Shown here: positions 2,932-62,317 of the stretch, one piece after another
Layout: every line of letters starts with the position of its first letter
Numbering within the stretch: the stretch's first letter is position 1
NCBI GenBank assembly: GCA_963795805.1
Contig: CAWCIV010000001.1
Span: 581,859-645,858 of the forward strand
Direction: 5' to 3'
DNA length: 64,000 nucleotides
Source: an uncultured Chloroflexia bacterium
GTDB lineage: Bacteria > Chloroflexota > Dormibacteria > CF-121
Position numbers and translations under genes: made by a program
Notes under the pieces: generated by a model
The model's input: the letters and a program-made list of their open reading frames with translations, nothing else
Told to the model about the DNA's origin: nothing
Database searches by the model: none

Positions 2932-4044
<1,113 letters not shown>

Positions 4045-7657: not shown

Positions 7658-7888
7658 ATGGCGCGGACGAGCGTGCGCCTGACGTTCCGCCGTGACACCC
7701 TCAATATCCCCGTGATCTATCAGATCGGCAAGGATTACAAGGTGGTCACAAACATCCGGCGCGCCGAGGTCAAGGACGAAATGGGGTGGGCCGATCTCGA
7801 TCTCGACGGGGAGCAGCCGGAGATCGAACGTGCCCTTACCTATTGCCAGAACCAGGGGGTCGAGGTGCAGCGCCTGGGGCCGGCGTGA
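7658..7888 (+). CDS. stand-alone NIL-domain protein (MetN C-terminal-like domain)
   Basis: 76 aa; pattern [65 protein letters not shown] matches the NIL domain layout; 7 nt after cysO-like stop. Confidence 0.55.
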
Positions 7889-41834: not shown

Positions 41835-41981
41835 TCGAACGCCTGTTCGTTTAGGCGGTCCCGAGAGGAAAGCTGGACGGCGGCGTTATACGGCTGGCAT
41901 TATTTGATTGGGACGGGTCGATTGACGACAGCGCAGCTCCGGGGAGCGCGCCCATCCACCCCAAAGGGAAGTTGATCACGT

Positions 41982-44768: not shown

Positions 44769-44790
44769 GACCGCGGCGACGCGGCGCGCC

Positions 44791-46332
44791 CTAGCCAGCC
44801 TGCTGGCGATCGCTTCCGCCGCCTCCCGTCATCAGCAGGCCCAATCGTTCCTCGGGGGTTTCGGCCGGCTCGATGCTGACGATCCGGCCTTCGTAGATCA
44901 CCGCAATGCGGTCTGAAAGCGATCGGATCTCGTCGAGCTCCGCCGAGACGAGCAAGACGGCCGCGCCCTCGTCGCGCTGGGCGACGAGGCGCCGGTGGAT
45001 GAACTCGATCGCCCCGATGTCAACCCCGCGGGTGGGCTGCGCCGCAAGCAAAACCCTGGGCTTCCCGGACATCTCACGGGCAACGATGATCTTCTGCTGG
45101 TTCCCACCGGAGAGGGTCCGGGCGGCCGAGGCCGAGCTCGGCGTGCGGATGTCGAACTCGGTGACCAGCCGTCGGGCAAACGCCAGAATCGCTTTCAGCC
45201 GCAGAATCAGGCCATACCAGGCAAACCGGATCGATCGCTGGCGGCCAAGCACCATGTTGTCCGCGACGGAGTAATTCAACACGAGGCCGGCCCCGCGGCG
45301 ATCTTCGGGGATATGGCCGACGCCGAAATTTCGGGTCATTCGTGCACCAAGTGAGGTGATCTCGCGATCGCCCAGCAGGATGCGTCCCGCCGCAGCCCGC
45401 CGGGTTCCCGCGAGCACCTCGATCAACTCGCTCTGGCCGTTGCCTTCAACGCCGGCGATCCCTAGGATCTCCCCCTGATGCAAGTCGAAGGTCACCCCCC
45501 GGAGCGCCGGAATCCCCTGGTCCGAGAGCGCGGTCAGATTCTGGACGCGTAGCGCGACCGGGCCGATGTTCGGGGTCGGCTTGTCGACTCGGAGAAGGAC
45601 GTCGCGTCCAACCATCATGCGGGCGATATCCTGCTCGTTGGTCTCTTTCGTTTGCAGATGCCCGACGACCTTGCCGCGGCGCATCACGGTGATCCGGTCC
45701 GAGATCTCGAGGACTTCGCGCAGTTTGTGCGAGATAAAAATAATCGTCTTGCCGGTCTTGACCAGGCCGCGCAGCACCCGGAAGAGGTCGATGGCCTCCT
45801 GCGGCGTGAGGACGCCAGTCGGCTCATCCAGGATCAGGATCTTGGCGCCGCGATACAGAACCTTGACGATCTCGACCCGCTGCTGCAGGCCAACCGGTAG
45901 GTCGGCCACTCGCGCGTCCGGATCGAGGGCCAGCCCGTAGGCTCGGGTGAGTTCCCGGATCTCGGCCCGTGCCTGCCTGTCGTCGTACAGGCCCCCGGGC
46001 CTCACCGGCTCCCGGCCAAGGGTGACGTTCTCATGGACCGTAAAGACCGGGATCAGCATGAAGTGCTGGTGAACCATGCCGATACCGTGCCGAATCGCGT
46101 CCCGCGGTCCGTTCATCACGACCGGCGAGCCGTCAACCAGGATCTGTCCCGAGTCCGGTCTGATCAAGCCGTACAGGATGTTCATCAGCGTGCTCTTGCC
46201 CGCGCCGTTCTCGCCAACCAGGGCATGGATCTCGCCCGGCCGAAGCTCGAAGCCGACATGATCGTTTGCGAGCACGCCGGGGAACTGCCTGGTGATCCCC
46301 CGCATCTCGACGGCGAGAGTTTCCTTACTCAT
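44791..46332 (-). CDS. ABC transporter ATP-binding protein with two nucleotide-binding domains (sugar/nucleoside type)
   Basis: NBD1 GENGAGKST...LSGGNQQK..., NBD2 with second Walker/signature set; 513 aa. Confidence 0.85.
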
Positions 46333-47280
46333 TCGGCACCTGGAACATAGGGAATGCCATCAGCGGCCGGGGGACTGCTCCGCCGGACCACAGCCGCGAG
46401 GACAATCAGTGTCAACAGATACGGCGTCATGCTGAGCAGGTACTGCGAGACGTGGATGCTCGAGTTGGCATCGTAGATCGCCTGGCCGAAGCCGAAGATC
46501 AGGCATGCGATGAACGCGCCGATCGGAGTCCACCGGCCGAAGATCATCGCCGCCAGGGCGATGTAGCCGCGGCCGTCCGTCATCCCGGGCACGAACGTGT
46601 TAGAGATCCCGATCGCGAGGAAGGCGCCGGCCAGGCCCGAGAGGAGCCCGCTGGTGATCACCGCGCCGTAGCGCAGCGCCTGGACGTTGATGCCCGCGGT
46701 GTCGGCCGCCTGGGGATGCTCGCCCACAGCCCGGATGCGCAGCCCGAGTCGGCTCCGGAACAGCAGTACCTGGGTACCGACCAGGACCAGCAGCGCAACG
46801 TAGACCATGACGTTCTGTTCGAAGAAGATCTTGCCCAGAAAAGGGATGTCAGCCAGCAGCGGGATGCTCAGGTTGGGCAGCGCGTCGCGGGACGAAACCT
46901 GCCCAACGTCCGATAGCCCGTAGAGGCGATTCAGCAAGAAGACCGTCACGCCGGCGGCAAAGATATTGATCGCGACTCCGGACACGATCTGGTCGGCCCT
47001 GAATCGGATCGACACGACCGCATGGATCAGCGCCATCAGGCCGCCCGCAAGCATCGACGGCGAGCACCGCCAGCAGGACATTTTGCGTGGCGAGATCGAT
47101 CGCCACCGCGAAGAACGCACCGGTCAGCATCATGCCCTCCATGGCAATGTTGACGACGCCGGAGCGTTCCGAGATGACGCCGCCGAGCGCAGGGAGCAGC
47201 AGCAGCGCCGCCGCCTGCAGGGTGGCGTGCCACAGGCCCGGGGTGCCGAGCAGCTGAAAGACGTCGCCAAAGAACCTCAT
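46329..47280 (-). pseudogene. ABC transporter permease (BMP-type uptake system) with one frameshift near 47040-47090
   Basis: N-terminal part ORF 46849-47280 ([31 protein letters not shown]...) and C-terminal part ORF 46329-47120 (...[27 protein letters not shown]...) in different frames; TTTT run at shift site. Confidence 0.5.
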
Positions 47281-48522
47281 GCCGTGTCCTTGTCATCGAT
47301 GCCCGTTGCGGCCGTGTCGGTTTCATGAGCGCCGGAGGCGGCGGCAGCGTCCGCCTCGGGTGTGAGGGGAACACGCCCAACGCCTGGCAGTCGCAGCTTG
47401 ACACTCCGCAAAAAGTTGGCGGCAATGCTGAACAGGATCAGCGCCTGGAGCATGTACACGAGATTTCCCGACACGCCCGCATCACTCTGCATGACGGAAC
47501 CGCCGCCATGCAGGGCGCCAAACAGTGACGCGGCCAGGATGATGCCGACGGCGCTATTCAGCCCGAGCAGGGCGACCGCAATGGCATCAAAGCCGGTCGT
47601 ATCGGTGAAGTACTGGTCGGTCAGGTTGTGGTCGACGCCCGCGACCTGGACCGCGCCCGCCAACCCGGCGAACGCTCCGGCGATCAGCATCGTCACGATC
47701 AGCGTTCGGCGGACGCCGATGCCCGCGTAGCGGGCGGCGCGCTGGCTCTGGCCGACCGCGCGGATCTCGTATCCGAGGGACGTCCGCCAGAGTAAGAAGG
47801 CATACAAGGCGGCGGCCGCGAGGGCGATGAAGAGCCCGGTATGGGCGCGATAGACCGAGGCCGGTAGGCCAAAGATGATCACACTGTTGTCGTGGGGCAG
47901 GAGGGTTGGCAACTCAGCTGAGTGCGAGATCGGTGACGAACGCGAGCTGCCGTGCGGCAGTTGGAGGGGCCCGCCGATGATCAAGAACCTCAAGAACCAC
48001 TGGGCGACGAAGTTCAACATGATGGTGGTCACCACCTCGTGGGCGCCGGTCACGGCTTTCAGGACGCCTACGATTCCGGCCCAGGCCGCCCCCGCCAGCG
48101 CGCCTGCGATAAGGACCAGCGGCAGCAGCAGGATGGCGGGGAGGCCGCCGACGTGGATGCCGACCGTCGTTGCGGCGATCGCGCCCATGATCAACTGGCC
48201 CTCGGCGCCGATGTTGAACATGCCGGCGCGGAAGGGGAGGGCGACGGCGATGCCGGTCATGATCAGCGGGGTCATGAACACCAGCGTGTTGGAGAGCTGG
48301 AGGGCCGGTTGCTCGCCGCCGAAGCAGAAGAGCCCGAAGCCGCCGCAAATCAGAGCCTGGTAGGCGAGGAGCGGGTTCCCGCCGGTGACGCCGACGATGA
48401 CGGCGCCCGCGAGGAAAGCGAGGCCGACCGAGCCGAGCGGAATGCCGAGCGCCCGGCCGGCCCGCCTGACTGACTGCCAATGGCGGGCCTTGCCGGGCGC
48501 TGCGCTTAGTTACCGCGGCCAT
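47277..48522 (-). CDS. ABC transporter permease (BMP-type uptake system); N-terminus ambiguous, probable additional frameshift near 48455
   Basis: body ORF 47277-48281 ([31 protein letters not shown]...); in-frame upstream extension to 48509 encodes genuine TM sequence ([36 protein letters not shown]) but has no canonical start; ATG 48522 is in another frame. Confidence 0.5.
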
Positions 48523-48555
48523 CTGGCCGCTTCACTTTAGACGACTCTCGCGCGT

Positions 48556-49718
48556 TCTTACGGAACCGTGTCGGGGACCGTGGTGCCGGATTTGATCTTG
48601 GCGATCATGTCATCGACCGCCGCCTTGACATCCGCCGGGAGCGTCAGGTGATCCACCTGGTAGCCGACTCCGTCATTGCTCAGGTCCGTAAGTCGTGATA
48701 CCGCCCTTGAACGGCCATCCGTCATGGACCGTCTTGATGGCGTCGTAGGTCGAGACGTCCACTTTCTTCAGCGCACTGACGATGACCGACTTGTCGAAGT
48801 GCCCCTCGGTCCGCATCGACACCGATGCTGTAGACGCCCGCCTTCCCGGCATTCGGTCAGGACGCCATTGCCGCAGCCACCCGCGACCTGGAACAGGATG
48901 TCCGCGCCATGGGCGATCTGGTCGTCCGCGACCCGGCGCATTTGGTCGGGTCGGCGAAATCGTTCGAGTAGCCATTCAAGGGGCTTGAGCGAGGGGTCGA
49001 CCATGTTTCGCCGCCCACTGGTAGCCCGCGATGTAGTGGTCAACCGGTGGGATCTTGATGCCGCCGACCGATCCGATGGTGTTGCGTCTTCTTCGGGTCG
49101 GCGCCGTCCTTCTCGAGCACCCGGCTATCGTGCCTACCAGCGCGCCCGCTTCCTGCTCCTTGAACGAGAGTCCGGCAACGTTCGTGTGATTGAGGTCATT
49201 GCCCTTATCGTCGGCGCCGGTCACCGTCGATGATGGCGAAGTGGATGTTCGGGAACTGGCCGGATACGGTGCCGATCGAGGTTAGCCATCAGGAAGCCGA
49301 CGCCGATGACCAGGTCATAGCCCTTCTGGGCATAGTTCGTCAGGTTGGGGATGTAGTCGGCGTTGGCGTGGGACTCGACGACGTCGCCCTGAACGCCGCC
49401 AATCTGACCCTTGCAGGAGAGGCTGGAACAGATGTTGCCGGTCGAGGCCGCCTTGCTCAGGCCGAGCGCGGCGAGGTGGTTGAAGCTCTTGTCATTGAGC
49501 CCGCCGGTGTCCGTCACCAGTCCGACTTTGTACGTTTTCGTCGACCCGCCGCTGGTCGGGGTACTGCCGCAGGCCGCCATGAAGACGGCCAGCATCAACC
49601 CCACACCGACGCTCAACAAACGAACGCGTGGCTGCCTCATACGTCCTCCCCTTCCAGGTGATGGGCGAGAGCCCGCGGAGCCCTTGCCCCGTGACTCAGT
49701 TCGGCCGGATTGTAGCAC
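48556..49718 (-). pseudogene. BMP-family substrate-binding lipoprotein paralogue, disrupted by at least four frameshifts
   Basis: fragments in four frames: 49221-49718 (MRQPRVRLLSVGVGLMLAVFMAACGS...KVGLVTDTGGLNDKSFN), 48976-49224 (NTIGSVGGIKIPPVDHYIAGYQWAAKH), 48768-49043 (RRVADDQIAHGADILFQVAGGCGNGVLTE), 48673-48975, plus tail to TAA at 48556. Confidence 0.65.
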
Positions 49719-49729
49719 GCGAATTGCGG

Positions 49730-50932
49730 CTAATTCTTGTCTAACAATCTCGCCGGGTCCGTCCCCGCCGCAAGGGCGGTTTGCAACTCGCTGAGATGGC
49801 GGCGCATCTCGGGGGTTACCCGTGCATCGAGCTCGTGGAAGGGAGCCAATCCGACGGCGCCGTCGGCAAGGCCAAGGCGACGGAGTCCGCCGAGCCCGCG
49901 ACCCGCCACCGCCTCGAGCACAACCGTTTCGACGGCGACGTCGGCGTGGGTCAGGGCGCTCGTGAGGAGGCAGGAACGGGCCGAAGGGTCGCCAACGTAG
50001 TCATCGAAGCCGGCGCCGATGCAGAGCCGGCCCGCCCGGGCCGCCGCCGGCAGGGCGCCCTGCCCGGTCCTGCCCCCGGCGCCGAAGATGACATCGGCGC
50101 CCTGGTCGATGAACTGCCGGGCCTCCGCATCGCCCCATACGGCATTCCCGAAGGGCGGGCCGTCGGTGGCGCCCTGGTACCGTCCGAGCACGCGGACTGC
50201 CGGATCGATGAAGGCGGCACCGCGCTCGAAGCCATGGCGGTATCGGGTCATGGCGTCGCTCTCCAGGCCGTAGACGCCTCCGAGGATCCGGCTGTGGCTG
50301 ACCATCGCGGCCAGCGCCCCGGCGAGGAAGGCGGCCTGATCCTCGCGAAACGCGATCACCACCAGGTTGGCCGGCGGGCTCAGGGTCACCAGCGGATCGA
50401 CGAGCACGAACCGAACCGCCGGACGCCGGGACGCAACGGCAGCGACCGCCTCGGTCAGGAGAAAGCTGCCGGCGATGACGAGGTCCGACCGGTCCGCGGC
50501 GACCTCAAGGTTCGCCTCGGCATCCGTCGGACCGGTCGAGCGGCGCAGCTCGGCCAGCACGCAGGGGTTGGCACGCGCCGCCGCTTGCAGGCCGGCCCAG
50601 CCCTGCGCATCAACCGGCGAGTCCAGCTGGGTGACGTCGGTCACGAAGGCAACCCGTAAGGTAGTCGCGCACGCCGTTGACCCTGTCGGTGAAACCAGGG
50701 CTGGTGAGGACGGGACCTCGGGCGCCGAGGAAAGCAGCAGCGCGAGGGTCGAGAGCGCGAGAACGATCCCGGCGAGCGTCAGGTACCGAAGAGACGGTCC
50801 CCGTAGTCGCCAAGCCCGGGCATGATGTATTTCTGGGTGTTGAGCTGGCGGTCCCGGGCGGCGGCGAACACGCGAACCTCCGGGTACGCCTCCTCCAATG
50901 CCGCGATCCCCTCGGGCGCCGCGACCACGCAC
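49730..50932 (-). CDS. BMP-family substrate-binding protein, third paralogue; start uncertain, overlaps upp 3' end in another frame
   Basis: TLRVAFVTDVTQLDSPVDAQGW...ADVIFGAGGRTGQGALPAAARAGRLCIGAGFDDY typical BMP layout; N-terminal TM/signal LTLAGIVLALSTLALLLSS. Confidence 0.6.
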   Translation of the reverse strand: MRGRGARGDRGIGGGVPGGSRVRRRPGPPAQHPEIHHARAWRLRGPSLRYLTLAGIVLALSTLALLLSSAPEVPSSPALVSPTGSTACATTLRVAFVTDVTQLDSPVDAQGWAGLQAAARANPCVLAELRRSTGPTDAEANLEVAADRSDLVIAGSFLLTEAVAAVASRRPAVRFVLVDPLVTLSPPANLVVIAFREDQAAFLAGALAAMVSHSRILGGVYGLESDAMTRYRHGFERGAAFIDPAVRVLGRYQGATDGPPFGNAVWGDAEARQFIDQGADVIFGAGGRTGQGALPAAARAGRLCIGAGFDDYVGDPSARSCLLTSALTHADVAVETVVLEAVAGRGLGGLRRLGLADGAVGLAPFHELDARVTPEMRRHLSELQTALAAGTDPARLLDKN

Positions 50933-51399
50933 ACTAGACGAACGCTTGCCGGCTGGTATTCCTTCAGGATCTCGACCGCCTTGCGGGCGGTGCCGCCGGT
51001 GGCCAGCATCGGATCGAGGATCATCACGGCCTTGCCGCGGATGTCGGGAGGCAGCTTGACGTAGTAGCGGGAGGCGACGGCGGTCCGCTCGTCCCGCTCG
51101 AGGCCGATGTATCCGACGGTCACTTCCGGCAGCAGCTCCAGGACGGGGCCGAGCAAGCCAAGGCCAGCCCGCAGGATCGGCACCGCCACCACGCGATCGG
51201 CGATGGCATAGCCTTCCGTCGCCTCGAGCGGGGTTTGCAGCGGGAAGACTCGGCTGCGCAGGTCACGGGTCGCCTCGTAGAGCAACAGCGTGATGATCCG
51301 GTCGGAGAACTCTCGGAACTGGTCCGGCGGCGTGTCGCGGTCCCGCAGGCGGGTCAGGTAGTGCGCCACCAGTGGATGTTCGACCAGGTGCAGCGTCAT
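50779..51399 (-). CDS. upp: uracil phosphoribosyltransferase
   Basis: LRAGLGLL..., ILDPMLATGGTA PRPP-binding motif, C-terminal YIMPGLGDYGDRLFGT. Confidence 0.85.
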   Translation of the reverse strand: MTLHLVEHPLVAHYLTRLRDRDTPPDQFREFSDRIITLLLYEATRDLRSRVFPLQTPLEATEGYAIADRVVAVPILRAGLGLLGPVLELLPEVTVGYIGLERDERTAVASRYYVKLPPDIRGKAVMILDPMLATGGTARKAVEILKEYQPASVRLVCVVAAPEGIAALEEAYPEVRVFAAARDRQLNTQKYIMPGLGDYGDRLFGT

Positions 51400-51752
51400 G
51401 CGCGTGCCTTTTTGACCAGGTCCGGGGGAATCACCGCAAGACCAACCTTCGTCATCCGGCCATCCTTGAGCAGCCGGGCGATTCGGGTGACATTGGACTC
51501 GGCCCAGTTGCTGCCAGGACGTCTTGGCGTAAAGCGGGTGGTGTAGCTCATCTCATCGATGCGCTTCGTCAATCCGTCGATCCATCCATAGCAGAGCGCC
51601 TCCTCGACCGACTCGTCATAGCTGATGCCGCCCTTCCCTGACGCCTTCTTGTTGTACACGAGCCAGATCTCCTTGTGGTCGGCATGATGCTGTGCCAGCC
51701 AGCGTCGCCACTCGGCGCGCGACGCGACCACCAGCCTCTGGCCAATCTCCAT
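51396..51752 (-). CDS. YdeI/OmpD-associated family small protein
   Basis: 118 aa; EIWLVYNKKASG...EALCYGWIDG...RF pattern. Confidence 0.5.
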   Translation of the reverse strand: MEIGQRLVVASRAEWRRWLAQHHADHKEIWLVYNKKASGKGGISYDESVEEALCYGWIDGLTKRIDEMSYTTRFTPRRPGSNWAESNVTRIARLLKDGRMTKVGLAVIPPDLVKKARA

Positions 51753-51755
51753 CCG

Positions 51756-52508
51756 TCATCCGACCGCCGCGCGGGTGGTCAGGGCAGCAATCGCCACCTC
51801 GAACATCGGTGTCAGATCGAGCGTCGCGACGCGTGACGGCTCGATGTCCGGTTCGCCCGGCTCGTTGACCACGGTGAGGATGGCGCCGCCGCGGAGTCCC
51901 CGCAACGAGCACAAGGTGAAGATCGTCGACGATTCCATGTCATTGCAGAGGACGCGGGCGCGCTGCCACACGCGGATCGCCTGCTCGAGATCCTCTCGCC
52001 GCGGCATCTCCGCGGCATGCAGGTCCGGATAGAGGGCGTCGTGGCTGCGCACGATCCCAGCATGGACGCGGGCGTTGCGAGCCTTCCCGGCGGCCAGCAT
52101 GTCCCGCACCAGTTCGTGGTCGGCGACCGCCGGGTAGCCAAGAGGGACGTACGGTGGTGTCGTCCCCTCGTCGCGGACCGCGGCGGTGGCGACCACCAGG
52201 TCACCGAAGCCGACGCCCTTCTGGATGGACCCGGTTGTGCCCACCCGAATGAAGGTCCTCGCCCCGATTGCCGCCAGCTCCTCAATAGCAATGGCCGTCG
52301 AGGGGGAGCCGATCCCGGTGGAGCAGACGGAGACCGTCTGGCCGCCGACCTGGCCGGTATAGGTGGTGAACTCGCGGTTGCTCGCGATCAGCTTTGAGTG
52401 CTGAAAGAGGCGCGCGATCGACTCCGACCGCCCCGGATCGCCGGGCAGGAGCACCGCCTCGCCCACGTCGCCGGCTTTGCAGCGGATGTGGTACTGGACT
52501 GCGGCCAT
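51756..52508 (-). CDS. purine/uridine nucleoside phosphorylase family (PNP/UDP-1) enzyme
   Basis: LLPGDPGRSESIA, STGIGSPSTAIAIEEL, VRVGTTGS family motifs. Confidence 0.8.
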   Translation of the reverse strand: MAAVQYHIRCKAGDVGEAVLLPGDPGRSESIARLFQHSKLIASNREFTTYTGQVGGQTVSVCSTGIGSPSTAIAIEELAAIGARTFIRVGTTGSIQKGVGFGDLVVATAAVRDEGTTPPYVPLGYPAVADHELVRDMLAAGKARNARVHAGIVRSHDALYPDLHAAEMPRREDLEQAIRVWQRARVLCNDMESSTIFTLCSLRGLRGGAILTVVNEPGEPDIEPSRVATLDLTPMFEVAIAALTTRAAVG

Positions 52509-52541
52509 GGCCGCCTGCAGTCTAAATCAAGCCGTCAATCG

Positions 52542-52997
52542 TCAGTTCGACCAGGAACTCGCGGTGCTGGTGGCCGTCGCGGTATCACCCATGAAGAGCC
52601 GCAGCAGGGGAGACGTGATCGGCTGCCGGTAGGTCACCGTGACATGGATCGGCGCCCGCCTACCGCGCTCCACCAGCGACCCGGGCGAGACGCTGATGGC
52701 AACCAGGTTGGAGTCGATGGGGCCGAGGTTCTCCAGGACCGTCTGGCAGATAGCGGCGTCGCTGTAGCCGGTCGGGTGGGCGAGCCCGCCACTCACGGCC
52801 CAGCATGATGCCTGCGAGGTGCCTGCGGCTTCCAGGCTGCTGCCGGCGACGTAGGCGGCCTCCTGGGCAGCATGGTTCACCTTCGCGGTCGCGAGGGCCA
52901 CCCCGGCGAACTGGACCGCGCTGAGGCCGAGCGCGAAGAGGAACCCGAGGACAAGCGCAAATTCGATCGCGACCTGTCCTCTCGATGCCCCACGCAT
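52542..52997 (-). CDS. TadE-like Flp-pilus assembly pseudopilin-like protein (orphan copy)
   Basis: N-terminal SRGQVAIEFALVLGFLFALGLSAVQFAGV TadE signature. Confidence 0.6.
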   Translation of the reverse strand: MRGASRGQVAIEFALVLGFLFALGLSAVQFAGVALATAKVNHAAQEAAYVAGSSLEAAGTSQASCWAVSGGLAHPTGYSDAAICQTVLENLGPIDSNLVAISVSPGSLVERGRRAPIHVTVTYRQPITSPLLRLFMGDTATATSTASSWSN

Positions 52998-53032
52998 GCC
53001 CCCATGATCGTGGCGGCCAATTTCGGCGGGCC

Positions 53033-54343
53033 TTACGTATCCAGCCGCTCGATGCCCGAAACGGTGACGCGTCGCAAAAGAAGCGGGCGTGCCGTGGCCG
53101 TCGGTCCGATCGAGAAAGCCCCCGCAACGTCAGCCGTAGCGTTCTCGGCACCCTCTGGCGTCCGCGCGTGGATCGTGGCGAGCGGCTCTCCCGCGCCGAC
53201 CGGGTCGCCGACCTTCTTGTGCAGGACGATGCCGACCGCGAGGTCGATCGGAGCATCCTTTCGATCGCGGCCGGCCCCGAGCGCCTTGCCGGCTAGCGCG
53301 ATGGCCAGGGCGTCGATGGCCGTGACGAATCCGGCCGCCGGGGCCGGGACAGACTGCTGGACGGGAGCCGTCGGGAGGCGCCCCGGATCGTCGATCACGG
53401 CCGCGTCGCCCCATTGCGCAGTGATGAGTTCCGCAAGCTTGCGTAAGGCGCTCCCCTCCTCGAGCAGGCGGCGCAGGTTGACGGCTCTGACCCCGGCAAG
53501 CCGCAGCATCTCAGCTCCGAAGCGAAGCGAAAGCTCCGTGAGATCGGCCGGTCCTCGATTGGCGAGCGTCTCGATCGCCTCCCTGACCTCGAGGGCGTTG
53601 CCGACCGCCTGACCTAGCGGCTGCTCCATGTCGGTCACGTAGGCGACGGTCTCGCGGCCGGCGCCGGCGCCGAGCGCGACCAGGGCACTGGCGAGCGCTT
53701 CGGCCTCGGTCACATTCGGGACGAAGGCGCCGCGACCGCATTTGACGTCGAGCAGAATCGCGTCGGCGCCCGCGGCCAGCTTCTTGCTCATCACGCTGCT
53801 GGCGATCAGCGGCAACGAGTCGACCGTGGCCGTCGCGTCGCGGAGCGCGTAGAAGACCTTGTCGGCGGGCACGATGTCAGCCGTCTGACCGGCGATCGCA
53901 ATGCCGATCCGGCGGACCTGGTCGATGAAGGTGCTGGTGGCGAGGTCGACGTGGAAGCCCGGGATCGACTCCAGTTTGTCGAGCGTGCCGCCGCTGTGGC
54001 CGAGCGCTCGGCCGGACAGTTTGGCCACCGGGATCCCGGCGGCTGCGACCAGGGGCGCGACGACGAGCGTCGCCTTGTCACCGACGCCTCCGGTGGAGTG
54101 TTTGTCGACCTTGCGTCCCGGGATCGAGGAGAGGTCGAGCTGGCGCCCGCTTGCGGCCATCGCCAGCGTCAGTGTCCTGGTCTCCGCATCGGTCATGCCC
54201 TTTAGCCGCACCGCCATTAGCCAGGCGGCGAGCTGGTAATCGGGAATCGATCCGTCGGTTGCACCCCGGACCAGGAAGTCGATCGTCCCCGGGTCGTGCG
54301 CCTGTCCGTCGCGCTTCTCTCTGATGATGTCGAGCGCCGTCAC
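53033..54343 (-). CDS. deoA: thymidine/pyrimidine-nucleoside phosphorylase
   Basis: DKHSTGGVGDKATLVVAPLVAAAG, SGRALGHSGGTLDKLESIPG, LDVKCGRGAF motifs. Confidence 0.85.
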   Translation of the reverse strand: MTALDIIREKRDGQAHDPGTIDFLVRGATDGSIPDYQLAAWLMAVRLKGMTDAETRTLTLAMAASGRQLDLSSIPGRKVDKHSTGGVGDKATLVVAPLVAAAGIPVAKLSGRALGHSGGTLDKLESIPGFHVDLATSTFIDQVRRIGIAIAGQTADIVPADKVFYALRDATATVDSLPLIASSVMSKKLAAGADAILLDVKCGRGAFVPNVTEAEALASALVALGAGAGRETVAYVTDMEQPLGQAVGNALEVREAIETLANRGPADLTELSLRFGAEMLRLAGVRAVNLRRLLEEGSALRKLAELITAQWGDAAVIDDPGRLPTAPVQQSVPAPAAGFVTAIDALAIALAGKALGAGRDRKDAPIDLAVGIVLHKKVGDPVGAGEPLATIHARTPEGAENATADVAGAFSIGPTATARPLLLRRVTVSGIERLDT

Positions 54344-57566: not shown

Positions 57567-57754
57567 GGATTCGTTACCTGGTCTTATGGCCCGTCGCCCT
57601 ACTGCAGATAACGCAAACGGTAATGGTCCGCATCGGGGATACCGATCACGGCTTGTTACAGGTTCCGTTACGACTTGTGCCCCAAAAGTCGCGCCCGGAT
57701 GAATACTCCCGGGAAAGTGACAACGAGCGTGCGTTCCGGCACAAATGTTCCGTG

Positions 57755-57783
57755 TTGCGGCTTGATGGGGGTGTGACTACAGT
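57755..57783 (+). promoter_or_regulatory. candidate sigma-A-type promoter TTGCGG-17 nt-TACAGT, placing transcription start at about 57790-57791 (first base of element E1)
   Basis: TTGnnn/TAnnnT hexamers with 17-nt spacer; same geometry upstream of E2. Confidence 0.35.
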
Positions 57784-57790
57784 TACCCCT

Positions 57791-58037
57791 GCGACCTGTC
57801 AGAAAGCCAGTTAGAGAAGGAAACGACTCTAGTGGGTCGCCGGCGAGGGATTCGCAAGGATCCCACTCTCGGACCGCAAGGTTCGGGGGCCTGGCCCGCA
57901 AGGGCTGGGGAATCGGATGTCGCAAGACGACCGGTTCTGCCGGTGACGAAGGTCTGGCCCGCAAGGGTTAGGCTGGGCGGCGGGATGAAGGCTTGCTGGA
58001 TAACACTGGCGAGTTGTAAACCGTAACGACGGGTCGC
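57791..58037 (+). ncRNA. candidate structured small RNA, copy E1 (about 247 nt), unknown family
   Basis: 5' GCGACCUGUC pairs with 3' GACGGGUCGC (10 bp); conserved AGAAAGCCAG; GAAA-capped hairpin UAGAG-AAGGAAACGA-CUCUA; several CCCGCAAGGG-type GNRA hairpins; conserved 3' GGCGAG..GUAAACCGUAAC; followed by U-rich AUUCUUAUUUAUCU; paralogue E2 at 61907. Confidence 0.5.
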
Positions 58038-58045
58038 ATTCTTAT

Positions 58046-58537
58046 TTATCTGGCGGTTCGGGCCACCTCCGGAACGAGGGGCTCCACGGCGCTGTCGCTG
58101 ATGGTGGTCTGGCGTGGCAGCCGGGTCTTGGTGTCGAAGCGGTAGAGCGCATCCGGCAGGCGTAGCGCGCGGCCCAGTGCCTGCTCGCCCTCGACGCCGG
58201 AGCCCGCCGCGTGGAAGATCCGGCCGAAGAGGAAGTAGAGGGCAAAGCTTTCGGTCGGCGCGACCAGCTCGAGCATGCCGGAGGAGCGATAGTCAGCCAG
58301 CGCTCGCATCAGGTCGGGCAGCGGCGAAGCGGCCAGGGTCCCACGAGAGACGTTGATCCGGCTCTCTTCCCGGCGCCGTTGCAGCCGGGCGAACTGGCGG
58401 CGGCGGGCCGCTCCCCGGGCCACCAGCAGGGCCAGGCACAGGAACACGATGCCTCCGGCAATCGGAATCGCGGGGCTGACTCGAGGATCAAGCGCTGTCA
58501 GGGCCGGGCCGATTTGCCGAGTGAGTTCGTCAAGCAT
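58046..58537 (-). CDS. DUF4388-domain protein with N-terminal TM segment
   Basis: LPDLMRALADYRSSGMLELVAPTESFALYFLFGRIFHAAGSGVEGEQALGRAL matches DUF4388 pattern; N-terminal AIPIAGGIVFLCLALLVARG TM. Confidence 0.55.
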   Translation of the reverse strand: MLDELTRQIGPALTALDPRVSPAIPIAGGIVFLCLALLVARGAARRRQFARLQRRREESRINVSRGTLAASPLPDLMRALADYRSSGMLELVAPTESFALYFLFGRIFHAAGSGVEGEQALGRALRLPDALYRFDTKTRLPRQTTISDSAVEPLVPEVARTAR

Positions 58538-58635
58538 CCGGCCATCCTATGCACGCGCCCGCTCGGTTTCCATCAAATCGACTGTCCGGTTTCCTGATCT
58601 CGGGGCTTGCCTGCCAGCGATAGAATCAAGCTCGA

Positions 58636-59561
58636 TGGAGGCGGCAGCCAGCGCCAGGTTCGACTCCCTGCTCAAGCGGGGCGAACTGATCGAATCGGTC
58701 TCCGAGATGACGCCGGATTACCTGCGCGAGCTGAAGCACACCCTGATCGTGTCGGGGGACACGGAGCTGATCTCGGCGCCGGCCTACTACCTGGCGGCCA
58801 AGAAGGCGCCCAGCGTGAACGCCTTTATGACCGGCATCGCCATCATCCAGGACGAGCTGGCCCACGCGCACATCGCCTATCACATTCTCGAGGAGCTGGG
58901 CGAGAGCCAGGAGGCGCTGATCTTCAAGCGGGATCCCAAGGCGTTTCGGTACCCATACGCCTTCGACGTGCCGCTGGAGAGCTGGACGGAGCTCGTCGTC
59001 GCCAATGCGATGTACGACCAGGCGGGCTTTTGCCTCCTCGGGGATATCCACGAACAATGTTCCTACGGGCCCTGGAAGCGGGGGTTGGTTAAAGTCATGG
59101 CCGAGGAGAATTTTCACTTGCGCAATGGGCGCAACTGGTCGAAGCGAATCAGCCAGGCGGGCGGCGCCGCTCGCGAGGAGCTCCAAACCGCCGTCGACTG
59201 GATGTTCCCCTTGACGGTTGAGTGGTTCGGGCTGCCGGACAGCCTGAAGCAGCACAGCGCCCAGCTCGACTATCGATTGAAAGGCCTGACCAACGACCAG
59301 CTCCGCCAGCAATGGTTGTCACTGGTGGTGCCCTTCATGGAGTCGATCGGCGTCAAGGTGCCGGCCCATCTGGACGGCCAGGCTTTCGTGCTCGATTACC
59401 CGTTTCCCTGCACCTTCGATGCCGAAGCGAAGCGATGGGACTTCAACGACCCGTGCAGCTGGGATGCGGTGATGTCTCGCTGGCGCGCCCGTGGCCCACG
59501 CAATACGGAGATGGTCGCGCTCTTCCAGGAGAGCTTCAGCAAATTCCAGGTCCACGCATGA
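58636..59561 (+). CDS. paaA: 1,2-phenylacetyl-CoA epoxidase subunit A-like diiron oxygenase (PaaA-like)
   Basis: SYGPWKRGLVKVMAEENFHLRNG and RLKGLTNDQLRQQWLSLVVPFMESIGVKVP align with E. coli PaaA [23 protein letters not shown] / [30 protein letters not shown]. Confidence 0.8.
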
Positions 59562-59884
59562 CGGCCGCGGCCGGGCCGCTCGAGGCGCGCGTCTGGTCCG
59601 CACTGAGCGAGATCGATGACCCGGAGATGCCGATTAATTTGGTGGACCTCGGCCTCGTCTACGGCATCGAGGTGGGGGAGAGGCGGGTGCGCTTGCGGCT
59701 GACGTTCACCGCGATGGGATGTCCGGCGAGCGACATGATCATGGACGATATTACGGCCCGGCTCCTGCGTGTGCCCGGCATCGACCAGGTGGACATCGAG
59801 ATAGTCTGGGACCCGCCCTGGTCGTCATCCCGGCTGAGTGCCGAGGGCCGCGAGACGCTGCGCGCCTGGGGGCTTGCCGTCTGA
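59558..59884 (+). CDS. DUF59/MIP18-type protein (PaaD N-terminal domain-like, metal-sulfur cluster assembly fold)
   Basis: VWSALSEIDDPEMPINLVDLGLVYGIEV...LTFTAMGCPASDMIMDDI; ATGA overlap with paaA. Confidence 0.65.
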   Translation: MTAAAGPLEARVWSALSEIDDPEMPINLVDLGLVYGIEVGERRVRLRLTFTAMGCPASDMIMDDITARLLRVPGIDQVDIEIVWDPPWSSSRLSAEGRETLRAWGLAV

Positions 59885-60108
59885 TGGAATACACACGGGT
59901 ACATCGCGAGGTGCGCGAGTACGCAGTTTTTGCGCGTAAACTGCGGGTCGAGCCGCTGCGGCAGGTTGGCAGCGTCGTGGCGCCGGACGACGAGCTGGCG
60001 AAAGCCTACGCGCGCGCGACCTATGACGAAGAGCGCTGGGTCGAGATGATGATCGTGCGACGGGACGCGGTCATCAGCCTATGGGCTCCCGGCGAGGACA
60101 CTGACTGA
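59884..60108 (+). CDS. paaB: PaaB-like small subunit of phenylacetyl-CoA epoxidase
   Basis: 74 aa; YAVFARK...PLRQVGSVVAPDDELAKAYARATYDEERWVEMMIV resembles PaaB; ATGA overlap. Confidence 0.6.
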   Translation: MEYTRVHREVREYAVFARKLRVEPLRQVGSVVAPDDELAKAYARATYDEERWVEMMIVRRDAVISLWAPGEDTD

Positions 60109-60806
60109 GTCTTTATTCGCTCGTCAAGAGCCTCGCCGACAACAAGCAGTTGCTCGGAATGCGTTACGCAGAATGGTGCACGGCCGCCCCGAGCCTCGAA
60201 GCCGATATCGCGGCCGCTGCGATGGGCCTGGACGACATCGGCCACAGCCGGGTGCTCTACGGGTCGCTGAAAGAGCTCGGGTCTCCCGAGGCCGGCACTG
60301 ACGATCCGGTCACGTATCACAATGTGCCCTATCTCGATCGGCCCTGGGAGGAATGGGCGCAATTCGTGGCCGCCAACGCCGTCCTGGACGGCGCCTTCTC
60401 CTTGATGATCGAGGCGCTCGCCGTTGGGCAGGTTGAGGTGTTGCGCAGCCGGCTGAAGAAGATGCTGCAAGAGGAGCAGTACCACTACCTGCACGGACGT
60501 AGCTGGATGCGTGAGACGGATGCCGCCGCGCAGGTGCACCAGGCATGGGCCGAGGCGATCGCCTGGATCGGGCCCGAAGGCGGCGATGTCGACCAGCTAC
60601 AGACAGAGGGCAAGCTCGCGATGGGAGTCAGGGACCTGACCCAACGGCTCGAGGCGCGGCTCGAGGCAAAGGCCCCGCCGGTCTCGGTCGACTGGACGGC
60701 ATGGGACCCGATCCGCCGCCGAACGGTCGGCGGCAGCATCGATCAGCAGACGCTTGACATGCTGCAGGGACTCGCTGAGAAGCGCTATATGCCGGCCAGT
60801 GGCTAG
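60108..60806 (+). CDS. paaC: PaaC-like diiron-fold subunit of phenylacetyl-CoA epoxidase; start codon unresolved
   Basis: ferritin-like helices; conserved N-terminal-type sequence LYSLVKSLADNKQLLGMRYAEW lies before the first canonical start (TTG 60150); in-frame region opens right after paaB stop at 60105. Confidence 0.6.
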   Translation, partial: SLYSLVKSLADNKQLLGMRYAEWCTAAPSLEADIAAAAMGLDDIGHSRVLYGSLKELGSPEAGTDDPVTYHNVPYLDRPWEEWAQFVAANAVLDGAFSLMIEALAVGQVEVLRSRLKKMLQEEQYHYLHGRSWMRETDAAAQVHQAWAEAIAWIGPEGGDVDQLQTEGKLAMGVRDLTQRLEARLEAKAPPVSVDWTAWDPIRRRTVGGSIDQQTLDMLQGLAEKRYMPASG

Positions 60807-60849
60807 AGAGACCCCCCACCCTAAACTCCCAGTAACCGAGGGGAGGGAA

Positions 60850-60993
60850 GACGTCACGACTCCGCCGGAGGTCTCCTGTACTTTCTGTCAATCGACGGAC
60901 ACCGAGGTCATTTCGCTGTTCGGGAGCCAGGTGATGACGATGCAATGCCGGTGTCGCAAGTGTGGCAACTACTTCGAGGCGAGCAAGTACTGA
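60850..60993 (+). CDS. small zinc-ribbon protein equivalent to PaaD C-terminal domain; start uncertain
   Basis: VSCTFCQSTDTEVISLFGSQVMTMQCRCRKCGNYFEASKY matches the PaaD C-terminal CxxC...S.FGS..C...C..C..F pattern; GAGGGGAGGGA RBS at 60838-60848; no canonical start within 30 nt. Confidence 0.4.
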   Translation, partial: DVTTPPEVSCTFCQSTDTEVISLFGSQVMTMQCRCRKCGNYFEASKY

Positions 60994-60995
60994 CC

Positions 60996-61826
60996 ATGGC
61001 TGACGGGCCCATCTACAGCTGCTTCTCGGTTGAAAGTATCGCGGGCGTCTACGAAGACATCTATGTGCCGCGCATCTTCATCCCGTGGGCCGGCCTCCTG
61101 ATCGAGCAGGCCAGTCTGCGCACCGGCGAGTCGGTGCTCGACGTCGCCACTGGGCCCGGGACGGTGGCGCGCCTGGCTGCCGAAGAGGTTGGACCGAAGG
61201 GCCGCGTCGTCGCAACCGACATCAGTCCGGCCATGGTTGACATCGCTCGGCGAAAGCCGCGCGTGGCTGGCGGAGCCGAGATCCACTATGTCGTCTCGCC
61301 CGCCGCCCCGTTGACGGCGCCCGGGGCCGCGTTCGATGTCGTGACCTGTCAACAGGGCCTCCAATTCTTTCCTGATCGTGGTGCGGCCATCCGCGAGATG
61401 TTTCGCGCGCTCCGGCCAGGTGGGCGACTCGTCGCGGCGGTCTGGCGTGAGATCGCGATGCAGCCGATCTTCGACGCGATCAACACTGCCCTGCATGAAT
61501 GCCTGCCTGCCGAGACGGTAGCGCCGTACGCCGCGCCGTTCCGATGGTCAAATGGCCAGGAGCTTGCCAGTGCCCTGCGTGGCCAGGGTTTTAGGGATGT
61601 CAGGGTCGAGGAGCATCGATTGCCGGTTGTCTACGAAGGTGGCGTGCCACAGGCCATGGCCACGCTCGCGGCCTCACCGGTCGCCGCGGCGATTGCGGAC
61701 ATGCGGGAAGAAAACCGCAACCAGTTATGGAACGCCGGCGCGCATCATCTGAAGCCGCATCTCAAGGGTGGCCAGCTTCACGCCGAGATGGTTTCGAATA
61801 TCGCCACCGCCGCCAAGGAACGCTAG
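60996..61826 (+). CDS. class I SAM-dependent methyltransferase
   Basis: VLDVATGPGTVA (motif I), VVATDISPAM, FDVVTCQQGLQFFPD, LRPGGRLV motifs. Confidence 0.8.
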   Translation: MADGPIYSCFSVESIAGVYEDIYVPRIFIPWAGLLIEQASLRTGESVLDVATGPGTVARLAAEEVGPKGRVVATDISPAMVDIARRKPRVAGGAEIHYVVSPAAPLTAPGAAFDVVTCQQGLQFFPDRGAAIREMFRALRPGGRLVAAVWREIAMQPIFDAINTALHECLPAETVAPYAAPFRWSNGQELASALRGQGFRDVRVEEHRLPVVYEGGVPQAMATLAASPVAAAIADMREENRNQLWNAGAHHLKPHLKGGQLHAEMVSNIATAAKER

Positions 61827-61871
61827 CTCTACCCAGGGGTCGAATGCCTGTTTGCGAACCGCAGTTCGGAG

Positions 61872-61900
61872 TTGTGCGAGGAATCGGCGGCACGTACGCT
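61872..61900 (+). promoter_or_regulatory. candidate sigma-A-type promoter TTGTGC-17 nt-TACGCT, placing transcription start at about 61907 (first base of element E2)
   Basis: same hexamer/spacer geometry as the E1 promoter. Confidence 0.35.
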
Positions 61901-61906
61901 ACGCCG

Positions 61907-62082
61907 GCGACCTGTCAGAAAGCCAGCCGGTGACGGAAACGACACCGGTAAGCTCCCGAGGACCGGGGCCGCAAGGTCTCGGCTAGTACGGAGCGAAGGG
62001 TCTCTCGGAAACGGGTGACCTGGGCGGCGGAAACGAGTCGCTGGGTCACACCGGCGAGGAGTAAGCCGTAACGACGGGTCGC
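61907..62082 (+). ncRNA. candidate structured small RNA, copy E2 (about 176 nt), paralogue of E1
   Basis: identical 10-bp terminal helix and AGAAAGCCAG; hairpin CCGGUG-ACGGAAACGA-CACCGG (stem fully compensatory relative to E1, loop conserved); conserved CUGGGCGGCGG and GGCGAG..GUAAGCCGUAAC; followed by UUCAUUUUUCCU. Confidence 0.5.
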
Positions 62083-62225
62083 TTCATTTTTCCTGCAGGT
62101 CTGCTGGCTCCTCCTTCCCGAGCCTGGTGGACCTGCGCGCGTCAGGATCGGGCGTTCCGTGCCCGCTCGTGCCTGTTTGTTAGGAAATATTAGAACTAAC
62201 ATCTTCGCAGATCTTTACAAACTGT

Positions 62226-62254
62226 TGACTGAACGCCTGGAGCGGGTTAGGGTG
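62226..62254 (+). promoter_or_regulatory. candidate promoter TTGACT-17 nt-TAGGGT for the BNR-repeat gene
   Basis: lower-GC stretch 62170-62235 with TTGACT; would give a ~55-nt leader that excludes E2. Confidence 0.3.
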
Positions 62255-62317
62255 GGGGGGCCTTGGTGCGGGAACACCAGGGCCGAACCGGCTAGCAGCT
62301 CACCCTGGGAGGGAAAC

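Follow-up and report, generated by a model that had tools for sequence, protein, structure and literature searches.

Results

Two related sequences around a Paa-like operon

The locus studied here raises the question of why two related sequences, E1 and E2, should lie on the same strand at either side of a block of Paa-like genes. It falls in a 64,000-nucleotide stretch of DNA (the window) from an uncultured Chloroflexia bacterium, for which the initial annotation offered three explanations: a pair of regulatory small RNAs acting on the bracketed cassette, acquisition or excision of the cassette through its repeats, or coincidence of a dispersed small RNA family. The bracketing itself was borne out, as both elements are on the + strand, their coordinates needed no change, and they share an identical 20-mer at their 5′ ends (GCGACCTGTCAGAAAGCCAG, at 57791 and 61907, where shuffles expect 0) and an identical 17-mer at their 3′ ends (CCGTAACGACGGGTCGC, at 58021 and 62066). 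A repeat search recovers the ends as direct repeats of 84% and 81%, while the middle parts diverge, giving a mean column identity of 74% when the 247 nt of E1 are aligned by MAFFT to the 176 nt of E2. The features of the locus are:

57724..57751, + strand: operator-like pair of palindromes preceding E1, the 14-bp boxes CGAGCGTGCGTTCC and GGCACAAATGTTCC, which abut
57755..57783, + strand: predicted E1 promoter, -35 TTGCGG (57755-57760), 17-nt spacer, -10 TACAGT (57778-57783), 7 nt to the RNA
57791..58037, + strand: E1, long-form E RNA, 247 nt; MFE -139.7 kcal/mol, z = -8.1; covariance model 120 bits
58038..58049, + strand: T-rich tail of E1, ATTCTTATTTAT, directly after the closing helix P1 and abutting the stop codon of the convergent DUF4388 gene
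58046..58537, - strand: DUF4388 gene (Pfam PF14332, E = 7.9e-9), an optional insert between the long form and paaA
58621..58626, + strand: TAGAAT box, 8 nt before the paaA ATG
58635..60993, + strand: Paa-like operon (Pfam), gene order conserved in all related loci
58635-59561, + strand: paaA (Pfam)
59558-59884, + strand: DUF59/FeS_assembly_P, the PaaD N-terminal part (Pfam)
59884-60108, + strand: paaB (Pfam)
60150-60806, + strand: paaC (Pfam)
60754-60993, + strand: PaaD Zn ribbon, Zn_ribbon_PaaD (Pfam)
60945..61826, + strand: class I SAM methyltransferase gene (Pfam), optional last gene of the interval
61841..61868, + strand: operator-like pair of palindromes preceding E2, CGAATGCCTGTTTG and CGAACCGCAGTTCG, starting 14 nt past the methyltransferase stop codon
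61872..61900, + strand: predicted E2 promoter, -35 TTGTGC, 17-nt spacer, -10 TACGCT, 6 nt to the RNA
61907..62082, + strand: E2, short-form E RNA, 176 nt; MFE -94.8 kcal/mol, z = -4.9; covariance model 196 bits
62083..62094, + strand: T-rich tail of E2, TTCATTTTTCCT, after P1
62095..62136, + strand: conserved hairpin after the short form, its loop with CCUUCCCGAG, kept whichever gene comes next

Pfam confirmed each gene that had been named in the cassette (DUF4388, PaaA, the PaaD N-terminal part, PaaB, PaaC, the Zn ribbon and the methyltransferase), as well as the secretion or pilus genes on one side, which are a TadE/TadE/TadG set to the left; the right flank of E2 holds a secreted protein, read in frame, whose BNR label is that of the initial annotation. 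The Paa-like proteins score far under the NCBIfam equivalog cut-offs (PaaA, for example, 113 compared to 280 bits), and paaE is absent from the operon by the same models. With a covariance model built from relatives, E2 and E1 score 196 and 120 bits and the next match in the 64-kb window 10 bits; the window holds no third copy.

A structured RNA in a long and a short form

E1 and E2 are, from their sequences, paralogous genes, long and short, of a previously undescribed structured small RNA. No Rfam 15 model matches it even at E <= 10, and nothing on such a family was found in the literature. Relatives are carried by more than 100 soil Dormibacterota contigs. A genome scan gave 64 loci which, less about a dozen chance matches, come from roughly 45 MAGs, with copies in two length classes of about 247 and 176 nt, and a further 60 short and 19 long copies, from a metagenome scan, fall within the same two classes. 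Across genomes the copies cluster by type, not by genome.

In E1, the closing helix P1 with an AGAAA junction encloses a 3-bp helix, GCC/GGC, a hairpin with the loop GAAGGAAACGAC, a branched, expanded domain of four GNRA-capped hairpins, another GNRA-capped hairpin, a 3′ hairpin domain and an AAC junction. E2 is the E1 core plus a small P3 domain. Invariant in both forms are the 10-bp closing helix, the AGAAA junction, the GCC/GGC helix closing the inner junction, the hairpin with the same loop, the 3′ hairpin domain and the AAC junction, and the difference between long and short is one peripheral domain.

The multi-junction fold common to E1 and E2 is a real RNA structure, with strong covariation. 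Compensatory changes are seen in 20 of the 93 consensus pairs predicted from 24 long-form orthologues, and in 12 of the 49 from 32 short-form orthologues. Pairing holds in 99.3% of cells over 104 distinct members of the family, compared to 27–45% when the partners are slid; two-sided pair changes number 18, compared to 5–11 in the slid controls; and none of 500 shuffles reaches any of five pairing measures. The GNRA-capped hairpins are swapped among long-form orthologues, with the helices retained. No change at all is seen in the same 104 sequences at pairs one to six of P1, in the GCC/GGC helix or at the base of P5; these helices, being invariant, rest on conservation and energy and not on covariation, and could also reflect a constraint on the DNA.

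Predicted promoters, operators and 3′ ends

Each E gene appears from its sequence to be a self-contained module, consisting of a double AAC-N4-GTT palindrome, a promoter, the RNA and a T-rich tail. The arrangement of two boxes, CGAnC-N4-GTTYG and then (C/G)GAAC-N4-GTTC, lies upstream of both RNA types at all loci and, in all the locus DNA examined, upstream of E genes only. The promoter pattern TTGnnn-N17/18-TAnnnT-N6/7-G1 fits all 121 distinct upstream regions (36/36 of the long type and 85/85 of the short), nearly all with different spacers (35 of 36 and 77, respectively). A generic promoter and terminator scan reported nothing at E1 or E2, as its -10 rule and its loop limit of 3–8 nt exclude such sites.

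The T-rich tail of E1 is probably a 3′ end or terminator. Of the 12 nt that follow a long form, 7.1 on average are T (43 distinct sequences), and conservation is absent further on; the short-form tail has the consensus TTCAaTTTtc and averages 6.2 T over the first 12 positions (82 distinct sequences). Beyond this tail, CCTTCCC is found within 70 nt (<=70) in 76 of 82 distinct short-form regions. The stem of the hairpin at this position is retained mainly via G-U changes, with weak covariation, and the hairpin may be a portion of a longer short-form transcript or a separate element.

The paa-like genes appear to be served separately. Almost every E-bearing locus, regardless of what lies upstream, keeps the sequence TAGAATCA with ATGGAG 5–8 nt after it; variants of the box occur at two outlying loci, and the operator box is absent from the paaA promoter and the operon at E-bearing loci. 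We read the TAGAAT box as a promoter of paaA's own, and the paaA mRNA as probably leaderless.

Gene order and inheritance

We examined about 10 kb around each E locus, so more diverged copies may lie elsewhere in these genomes. Every contig spanning the locus has the order TadG-TadE-TadE, long form, paaA-DUF59-paaB-paaC-Zn ribbon, short form; no locus-spanning contig with E lacks the operon, and among the more than 100 contigs none has an E copy in another gene context. The genome-scan matches are consistent with a single locus in each MAG, holding a long and a short copy, and where two contigs of a MAG match, they are pieces of that locus, broken at an E copy or close to one.

Around this fixed order the gene content varies, with DUF4388, alpha/beta hydrolase, HEAT-like, aminotransferase, Kelch-like and ECF sigma factor genes in the interval. 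The DUF4388 gene, for instance, occurs only in the closest relatives (L010, L018, L023, L056 and L117) and is elsewhere absent or replaced, and at loci without the methyltransferase gene the short form comes directly after the Zn-ribbon gene. What follows the short form differs too, being a secreted repeat protein, an HtrA-type protease on the opposite strand or a LysE-type transporter.

Outside these loci, six more distant Dormibacterota contigs have a paa-like operon (PaaA 78–82% identical) whose surroundings, out to 10 kb, contain neither E RNA nor Tad genes. The E RNA pair is limited to one Dormibacterota lineage, and we infer that its distribution tracks the lineage-specific TadE/TadG trio more closely than the widespread paa-like operon. 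Judging from these comparisons, the duplication is older than the spread of one Dormibacterota sublineage, and the locus with its Tad genes, two E RNAs and Paa-like operon has been inherited vertically since, with other genes gained and lost inside and beside it.

Discussion

We think it likely that E1 and E2 are free-standing paralogous structured RNA genes, vertically inherited and kept by one Dormibacterota lineage at both sides of one operon, rather than mobile-cassette ends. That they are such ends, with a cassette acquired or excisable by recombination between them, is quite improbable, though not without points in its favour: related sequences of the same orientation flank a gene set, the interval varies between genomes and holds an IS transposase in L032, and partial copies of the short-form 3′ end lie past the short form in L002 and L054. 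The cassette without E copies, proposed in the initial annotation as evidence against a link to the repeats, was found only in the six distant relatives, whose operon lies elsewhere; they imply that the operon reached the E locus once, which also favours a cassette. Against this, the copies have diverged (247 and 176 nt, with unlike middle domains), each form is orthologous across species and carries a complete promoter and operator, and none of the more than 100 contigs spans the locus with a single E copy and the operon missing. The accessory island once thought plausible also finds no support in composition, which is ordinary (GC 0.648 in the cassette compared to 0.658 +/- 0.017 in the window, GC3 0.80 compared to 0.83), nor in mobility genes: Pfam finds no integrase or transposase in the window interval, plasmid, phage and viral collections give no match, and no tRNA was found. 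A recent acquisition or excision through the repeats is ruled out by the diverged, type-wise orthologous copies and the fixed locus. Coincidence of a dispersed, many-copy family is the least credible reading, with hardly any probability; only the finding of two copies in this one window could be taken that way, but one locus per MAG (the two-contig cases included), the lack of a further copy in 64 kb and the same gene order in every locus-spanning contig refute it at the sensitivity used.

Two other roles for the elements can be weighed in the same manner. They might be cis-regulatory, the long form as a riboswitch-like leader of the paa operon and the short form either leading the secreted-protein gene or stabilising or terminating the operon at its 3′ end, which we consider unlikely. 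At several loci (L035, L044) the long form does lie on the paaA strand and end only about 50 nt short of that gene, the short form begins 70–80 nt past the last interval gene with no terminator between, at 17 loci a secreted protein (about 620 aa, SxDxGxTW-type repeats, one protein cluster) follows the short form on the same strand, and the fold has the multiple junctions and invariant junction nucleotides of riboswitch aptamers. However, in L030 and L062 the long form, operator and promoter included, is inverted relative to paaA; at many loci an opposite-strand gene (DUF4388 in the window) or 1–2.5 kb of other genes part the two; the T-rich tail comes immediately past the closing helix; paaA retains its own TAGAAT box 7–8 nt before the ATG; and the gene after the short form varies, the secreted-protein gene, where present, having its own conserved promoter-like box. 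Conservation of the DNA itself, as protein-binding or architectural repeats marking the locus borders, is very improbable. In its favour, the outermost 20 and 17 nt do not vary, the outer helix has no two-sided changes and the upstream palindromes are clearly DNA-level sites, but the 18 internal pairs with two-sided compensatory changes hold on one strand only and their pairing collapses when slid, GNRA-capped hairpins are exchanged between orthologues with the helices kept, and the promoter is positioned precisely at the fold's first base.

The most likely reading of these sequences is a co-regulated pair of trans-acting structured RNAs. Both would be transcribed independently, ending at the closing helix and a U tract, and would be switched together by one transcription factor binding the palindromes; they would act in trans as folded RNAs binding a protein or small ligand, and less likely as cis leaders or linear antisense RNAs. 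We give such a trans-acting, protein- or ligand-binding mechanism about an even chance. Complements of the conserved E loops, searched for in the 64-kb window, picked out no target. The regulatory pair first proposed comes closest of the three original explanations, in that these are structured RNA genes with conserved promoters of their own and a shared operator, flanking the operon in every locus-spanning contig; any action on the cassette itself would be hypothetical, and paaA has its own conserved -10 box without the operator.

Several known systems resemble parts of this picture. The raiA motif RNA, OLE, ROOL and GOLLD are orphan bacterial non-coding RNAs with complex folds, all of them Rfam families. 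Like them, E is lineage-restricted, has a multi-junction fold with invariant junction nucleotides and GNRA-capped peripheral helices, and is a free-standing gene with its own predicted promoter and terminator-like end, a conserved gene neighbourhood and no known biochemical role; unlike them, it matches no Rfam 15 model in sequence or structure and forms a fixed long and short pair at one locus with a shared operator, and it is much smaller than OLE, ROOL or GOLLD. Paralogous co-regulated pairs are known in 6S-1/6S-2, GlmY/GlmZ, CsrB/CsrC and PrrF1/PrrF2, some with genes close together. The two homologous E RNAs per genome likewise share a core, each gene with its own promoter and the same putative transcription-factor site ahead, but the fold is neither a 6S-like rod nor a series of repeated protein-binding hairpins, neither a repeated GGA-type motif nor an evident antisense seed was found in the RNAs, and the genes are parted by a conserved operon and not in tandem. 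Riboswitch aptamers share the compact junction architecture, near-invariant unpaired nucleotides and covarying peripheral stems, whereas E does not belong to one particular gene's 5′ UTR, flips in orientation to its neighbours, and has a T tract directly after the closing helix with no expression platform identified. Direct-repeat islands (att sites, composite transposons) also have related sequences in the same orientation around variable accessory content, but the E repeats are full genes that diverged long ago, around an interval that in the window has no recombinase and has ordinary composition, with a core operon fixed in all members.

A similar comparison can be made for the operator, for which no regulator gene was identified around the E loci, nor any lexA, recA or other SOS gene. 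The Gram-positive LexA box, CGAACRNRYGTTYC, is an AAC-N4-GTT palindrome. The PaaR site of Thermus thermophilus is CNAACGNNCGTTNG (PMC6651687). The E boxes match these two in half-sites and 4-nt spacing, are 14 bp and lie next to a promoter; they differ in occurring as two abutting boxes just upstream of the -35 hexamer, and the paa-like operon here is without them.

Two related elements and their neighbours

The initial annotation described two direct repeats, E1 and E2, around a small gene cassette, and its coordinates for both are exact. The elements and the genes on their left lie as follows:

42679-43767, + strand: adenosine deaminase gene, just left of the nucleoside salvage run
43785-54343, - strand: nucleoside salvage and transport run, directly left of a TadE/TadG trio
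57791-58037, + strand: E1, 247 nt
61907-62082, + strand: E2, 176 nt

The first 20 nt of E1 and E2 are identical, as are their last 17 nt; neither stretch has a further copy in the window (the 20-mer is also absent from shuffled sequences), and a repeat search finds their ends as direct repeats (84% and 81%). Their middles differ in length and sequence, the elements being 247 and 176 nt long with a mean column identity of 74%. Pfam assignments bear out the genes that had been named between them: DUF4388 (on the - strand), PaaA, DUF59/FeS_assembly_P, PaaB, PaaC, a PaaD-type Zn ribbon and a methyltransferase. The left side had been taken for secretion and pilus genes, and three TadE/TadG-type genes are indeed found there by Pfam. 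However, no other tad/cpa pilus genes occur near this trio, and since the genes farther left serve nucleoside salvage and transport, the pilus flank is limited to these three. The salvage run comprises two Bmp/PnrA-type binding proteins, an ABC ATPase and two permeases, together with a uracil phosphoribosyltransferase, a purine nucleoside phosphorylase and a pyrimidine nucleoside phosphorylase.

Distribution among related genomes

A first scan of species-representative genomes, with a pattern taken from the 5′ region of E, gave 64 loci, about a dozen of them chance matches in unrelated organisms and the rest from roughly 45 MAGs. These MAGs are labelled Candidatus Dormi(i)bacterota or soil “Chloroflexi CF_”, with a few Eisenbacteria, Binatus and Limnocylindria. 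The contigs labelled Eisenbacteria, Binatus, Limnocylindria or Limnocylindrales (L002, L045, L006, L028, L048 and L054) have the same synteny and a PaaA 82-89% identical to that of the window; they probably come from Dormibacterota and are mislabelled or misbinned. The copies fall into two sharp length classes, one of about 247 nt like E1 (E-long) and one of about 176 nt like E2 (E-short), each orthologous across genomes. A covariance model built on 32 short forms finds both long and short forms in all these loci, as well as copies missed by the pattern. Scanning metagenomes with a second, three-part pattern independent of the closing helix (P1) added 60 short and 19 long copies, and no third length class. 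The matches fit one E locus per MAG, with two contigs hit in the same MAG representing pieces of that locus. The other metagenome pattern matches (20 among the matches listed, unconfirmed by the covariance model) look like chance and lie mostly in coding sequence. One further locus, L067, looks similar by eye but was rejected, scoring 8.5 bits with a fold z of -0.6.

A covarying fold

Both elements fold far more stably than shuffled sequences (z = -8.1 for E1 and -4.9 for E2), and in each the 5′ and 3′ ends pair as a closing helix of 10-11 bp. The differences between E1 and E2 in the first hairpin are compensatory, with TTAGAG/CTCTAG in one and CCGGTG/CACCGG in the other. When 104 distinct sequences are aligned to the covariance model, 99.3% of cells are paired, compared to 27-45% when the partners are slid, and two-sided changes are seen in 18 of the 49 pairs, compared to 5-11 when slid. 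None of 500 shuffles reaches these values in any covariation measure. No variation is seen in the first six P1 pairs, the GCC/GGC helix or the base of the 3′ domain, so that these parts are supported by conservation and not by covariation. By comparative sequence analysis, then, the E elements are predicted structured non-coding RNA genes, whose base pairs are kept by compensatory substitutions.

Two loci have internally deleted long forms that keep the core and lose most of the peripheral domain (P3) that is expanded in E-long: L012 at 3272-3388 (117 nt) and L032 at 7773-7919 (147 nt). This may mean that the expanded P3 is dispensable, or that the two copies are in decay.

Transcription signals

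All 121 distinct upstream regions (36/36 long-type and 85/85 short-type) fit TTGnnn-N17/18-TAnnnT-N6/7-G1, where G1 is the first RNA base, and their spacers are nearly all different, as is typical of a real promoter. Directly upstream of it, in both paralogues, lie two conserved, abutting 14-bp palindromes, CGAnC-N4-GTTYG and (C/G)GAAC-N4-GTTC, a pair that was found solely upstream of E genes in 1.36 Mb of sequence, and in both types a T-rich tail follows the closing helix. The E genes thus carry their own predicted transcription signals at the ends of the fold.

The AAC-N4-GTT geometry of this putative operator is that of the Gram-positive LexA box. A tblastn search of the 1.36 Mb with E. coli RecA and LexA queries gave no lexA or recA homologues. 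The sole further perfect box in the window, the single palindrome CGAACGCCTGTTCG at 41836-41849, has the half-sites of the E operator; considered as a LexA lead, it lies in the gap between GH39 glycosidase and HAD hydrolase genes, and may well be a chance match. The same geometry is seen in the Thermus PaaR site CNAACGNNCGTTNG (PMC6651687).

The neighbouring genes have signals of their own. A TAGAAT box stands 7-8 nt before the paaA ATG, without an operator; in the window (58621-58637) it lies 8 nt from the ATG and there is no Shine-Dalgarno sequence, an arrangement that suggests a leaderless paaA mRNA. In at least two distant loci without E RNA (L065 and L066), paaA is preceded instead by a GAGG-type ribosome-binding site. 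The secreted-protein gene 3′ of E-short likewise has its own conserved promoter-like box.

Locus architecture and the nature of the interval

The order of genes, as determined by tblastn with the window proteins, is the same in every contig spanning the locus: TadG-TadE-TadE on one strand, E-long, paaA-DUF59-paaB-paaC-Zn ribbon, and E-short. E-long and E-short lie 2.7 to about 7 kb apart, depending on which other genes have been gained or lost. For instance, DUF4388 lies between E-long and paaA only in the closest relatives of the window, and an alpha/beta hydrolase, a HEAT-like protein, Kelch-like proteins or an ECF sigma factor are found there in others, with an aminotransferase and/or a methyltransferase before E-short. 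After E-short, 17 loci have a gene for a secreted repeat protein of about 620 aa, and others one for an HtrA-type protease on the opposite strand or for a LysE-type transporter. Two loci, L030 and L062, have E-long inverted along with its operator and promoter, and there it runs in the direction of the Tad genes.

The initial annotation had raised the possibility of a mobile cassette bounded by repeats, and the two elements do lie in direct orientation around a set of genes. The remaining evidence speaks against it. All seven ORFs of the interval in the window have other Pfam assignments and none is a recombinase or transposase; the only IS transposase in the interval belongs to L032, as a secondary insertion (a transposase-like ORF at about 3476-4900, between the Zn-ribbon gene and paaC). 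No empty site with a single repeat was seen in the locus-spanning contigs (more than 100 contigs surveyed), and plasmid, phage and viral collections gave no match. The composition of the interval, suggested as a check, is in the normal range, with a GC of 0.648 compared to 0.658 +/- 0.017 for windows of the same size and a GC3 of 0.80 compared to 0.83. Finding the cassette in relatives without flanking E copies had been named as refuting evidence, and this was seen in more distant relatives only, which have the operon without E at other positions. Direct repeats on either side of a group of genes may, as here, be ancient paralogous RNA genes and not footprints left by a mobile element. A different explanation, that the elements are cis-acting leaders or riboswitches, would place them constantly in a same-strand 5′ UTR, and they do not hold such a position, since E-long is inverted in two loci and often separated from paaA, and the gene after E-short varies. 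Together with the promoter, operator and T tail of the RNA genes themselves, and the separate boxes of paaA and the secreted-protein gene, this inversion rules out either element as a simple leader or riboswitch.

The scores of the operon's proteins fall far below the NCBIfam equivalog cut-offs (PaaA 113/280, PaaC 71/133, PaaB 29/85, PaaD 68/108), and no PaaE-like gene was found in the window interval or among the called genes of more distant relatives. By neither measure is the cassette a phenylacetyl-CoA 1,2-epoxidase (PaaABCDE), and the safe description is a Paa-like di-iron oxygenase with the substrate unspecified. PaaD is split between two ORFs (59558-60993), DUF59 and Zn ribbon, that lie on either side of paaB and paaC; in its listed form the Zn-ribbon ORF runs into the end of paaC on one side and the start of the methyltransferase gene on the other, which makes a true start farther downstream probable.

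The PaaA family is large (4113 clusters at E <= 1e-20, the best 120 of the 4113 all at least 77% identical), and the family of the TadE protein adjoining E-long is small (261 clusters at E <= 1e-10, the best 120 of the 261 all at least 71% identical). Six loci on long contigs, one from Ca. Dormiibacter spiritus, have a PaaA 78-82% identical and carry paaA-DUF59-paaB-paaC; within 10 kb of these the covariance model finds no E RNA, there are no Tad neighbours, and in two of the six a PaaX gene lies directly upstream. Given these loci and the small TadE family, the RNA pair follows the lineage of the Tad trio and not the Paa-like operon generally. The operon's arrival between the RNA pair was a single event in this lineage's ancestor.

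Relation to known RNAs and proposed role

At gathering thresholds, Rfam 15 gives no matches in the whole window, and at E <= 10 over 57600-62300 there is nothing in E1 or E2; the sole match, ilvB-OMG, lies outside both elements and is a chance one (12 bits, compared to a gathering score of 95.9). ARAGORN found no tRNA or tmRNA, and a literature search gave no mention of the E sequences or of ncRNAs from Dormibacterota. The E RNAs are a new family without Rfam membership, within an already known kind of element, the closest known examples being orphan complex-folded ncRNAs (e.g. the raiA motif RNA) and paralogous co-regulated sRNA pairs.

In this family the multi-junction fold covaries, the promoter, operator and T tail keep fixed positions, the duplication is ancient and the synteny is fixed. 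Both RNAs would be transcribed on their own, at lengths of about 247 and 176 nt, with E-long and E-short under the joint control of one palindrome-binding factor. Their action would be in trans and depend on the fold, with a protein or a small molecule as the bound partner. We put forward tentatively, and with some doubt, that they constitute a new functional class of folded RNA in one Dormibacterota lineage, ligand-sensing or protein-partnered and trans-acting, with the two forms switched together by one transcription factor and their activity tied to the TadE/TadG-like proteins or the Paa-like di-iron oxygenase.

Dormibacterota are abundant in soil, and to our knowledge nobody can culture this phylum and its RNA biology is a blank. 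A well-supported structured RNA family from it, strongly covarying, unmatched in Rfam and represented more than 100 times, corrects the idea of a mobile cassette and should be of moderate interest to RNA specialists. Because the gene model is clear (operator, promoter, RNA, tail) and the long and short forms are a natural pair, the family can be used in vitro without culture, for in-line probing, pull-downs or structure determination.

Additional features near the RNA genes

As antisense seeds, sequences complementary to the conserved hairpin loop and to the CCUUCCC loop led to no informative sites in the window. The intergenic region between tadE1 and E-long was considered as a decayed third copy or an antisense target, and rejected on Smith-Waterman scores against E1 and E2 not above those of shuffles. 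Between tadE1 and the E1 operator, 57600-57720 is conserved over most of its length across loci and has several GTTAC/GTAAC motifs, with no significant similarity to E1 or E2 and, on both strands, RNAalifold structure that is only weak. A promoter or leader of tadE1 may lie here, or else binding sites for proteins.

Directly after the T tail of E-short, at 62095-62136, is a hairpin with a CCUUCCCGAG loop that occurs in 76 of 82 distinct short-form downstream regions, whichever gene follows, and is missing in the L002/L054 group; its covariation is weak. The loop resembles an anti-Shine-Dalgarno sequence and the stem strands resemble both strands of P1 (GACCUGU/ACAGGU). The predicted hairpin may belong to the E-short transcript or be an element apart. 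A riboswitch-like switch between P1 and this hairpin through such strands was rejected, the alternatives being much weaker than the hairpin and needing a pseudoknot. Partial copies of the E-short 3′ end (GGGTCGCTTCAATTTTCC-like) occur once or twice just downstream of E-short, in L002 (about 4560-4658, - strand) and L054 (about 5242-5400), and resemble scars left at the RNA gene's 3′ end by duplication or integration.
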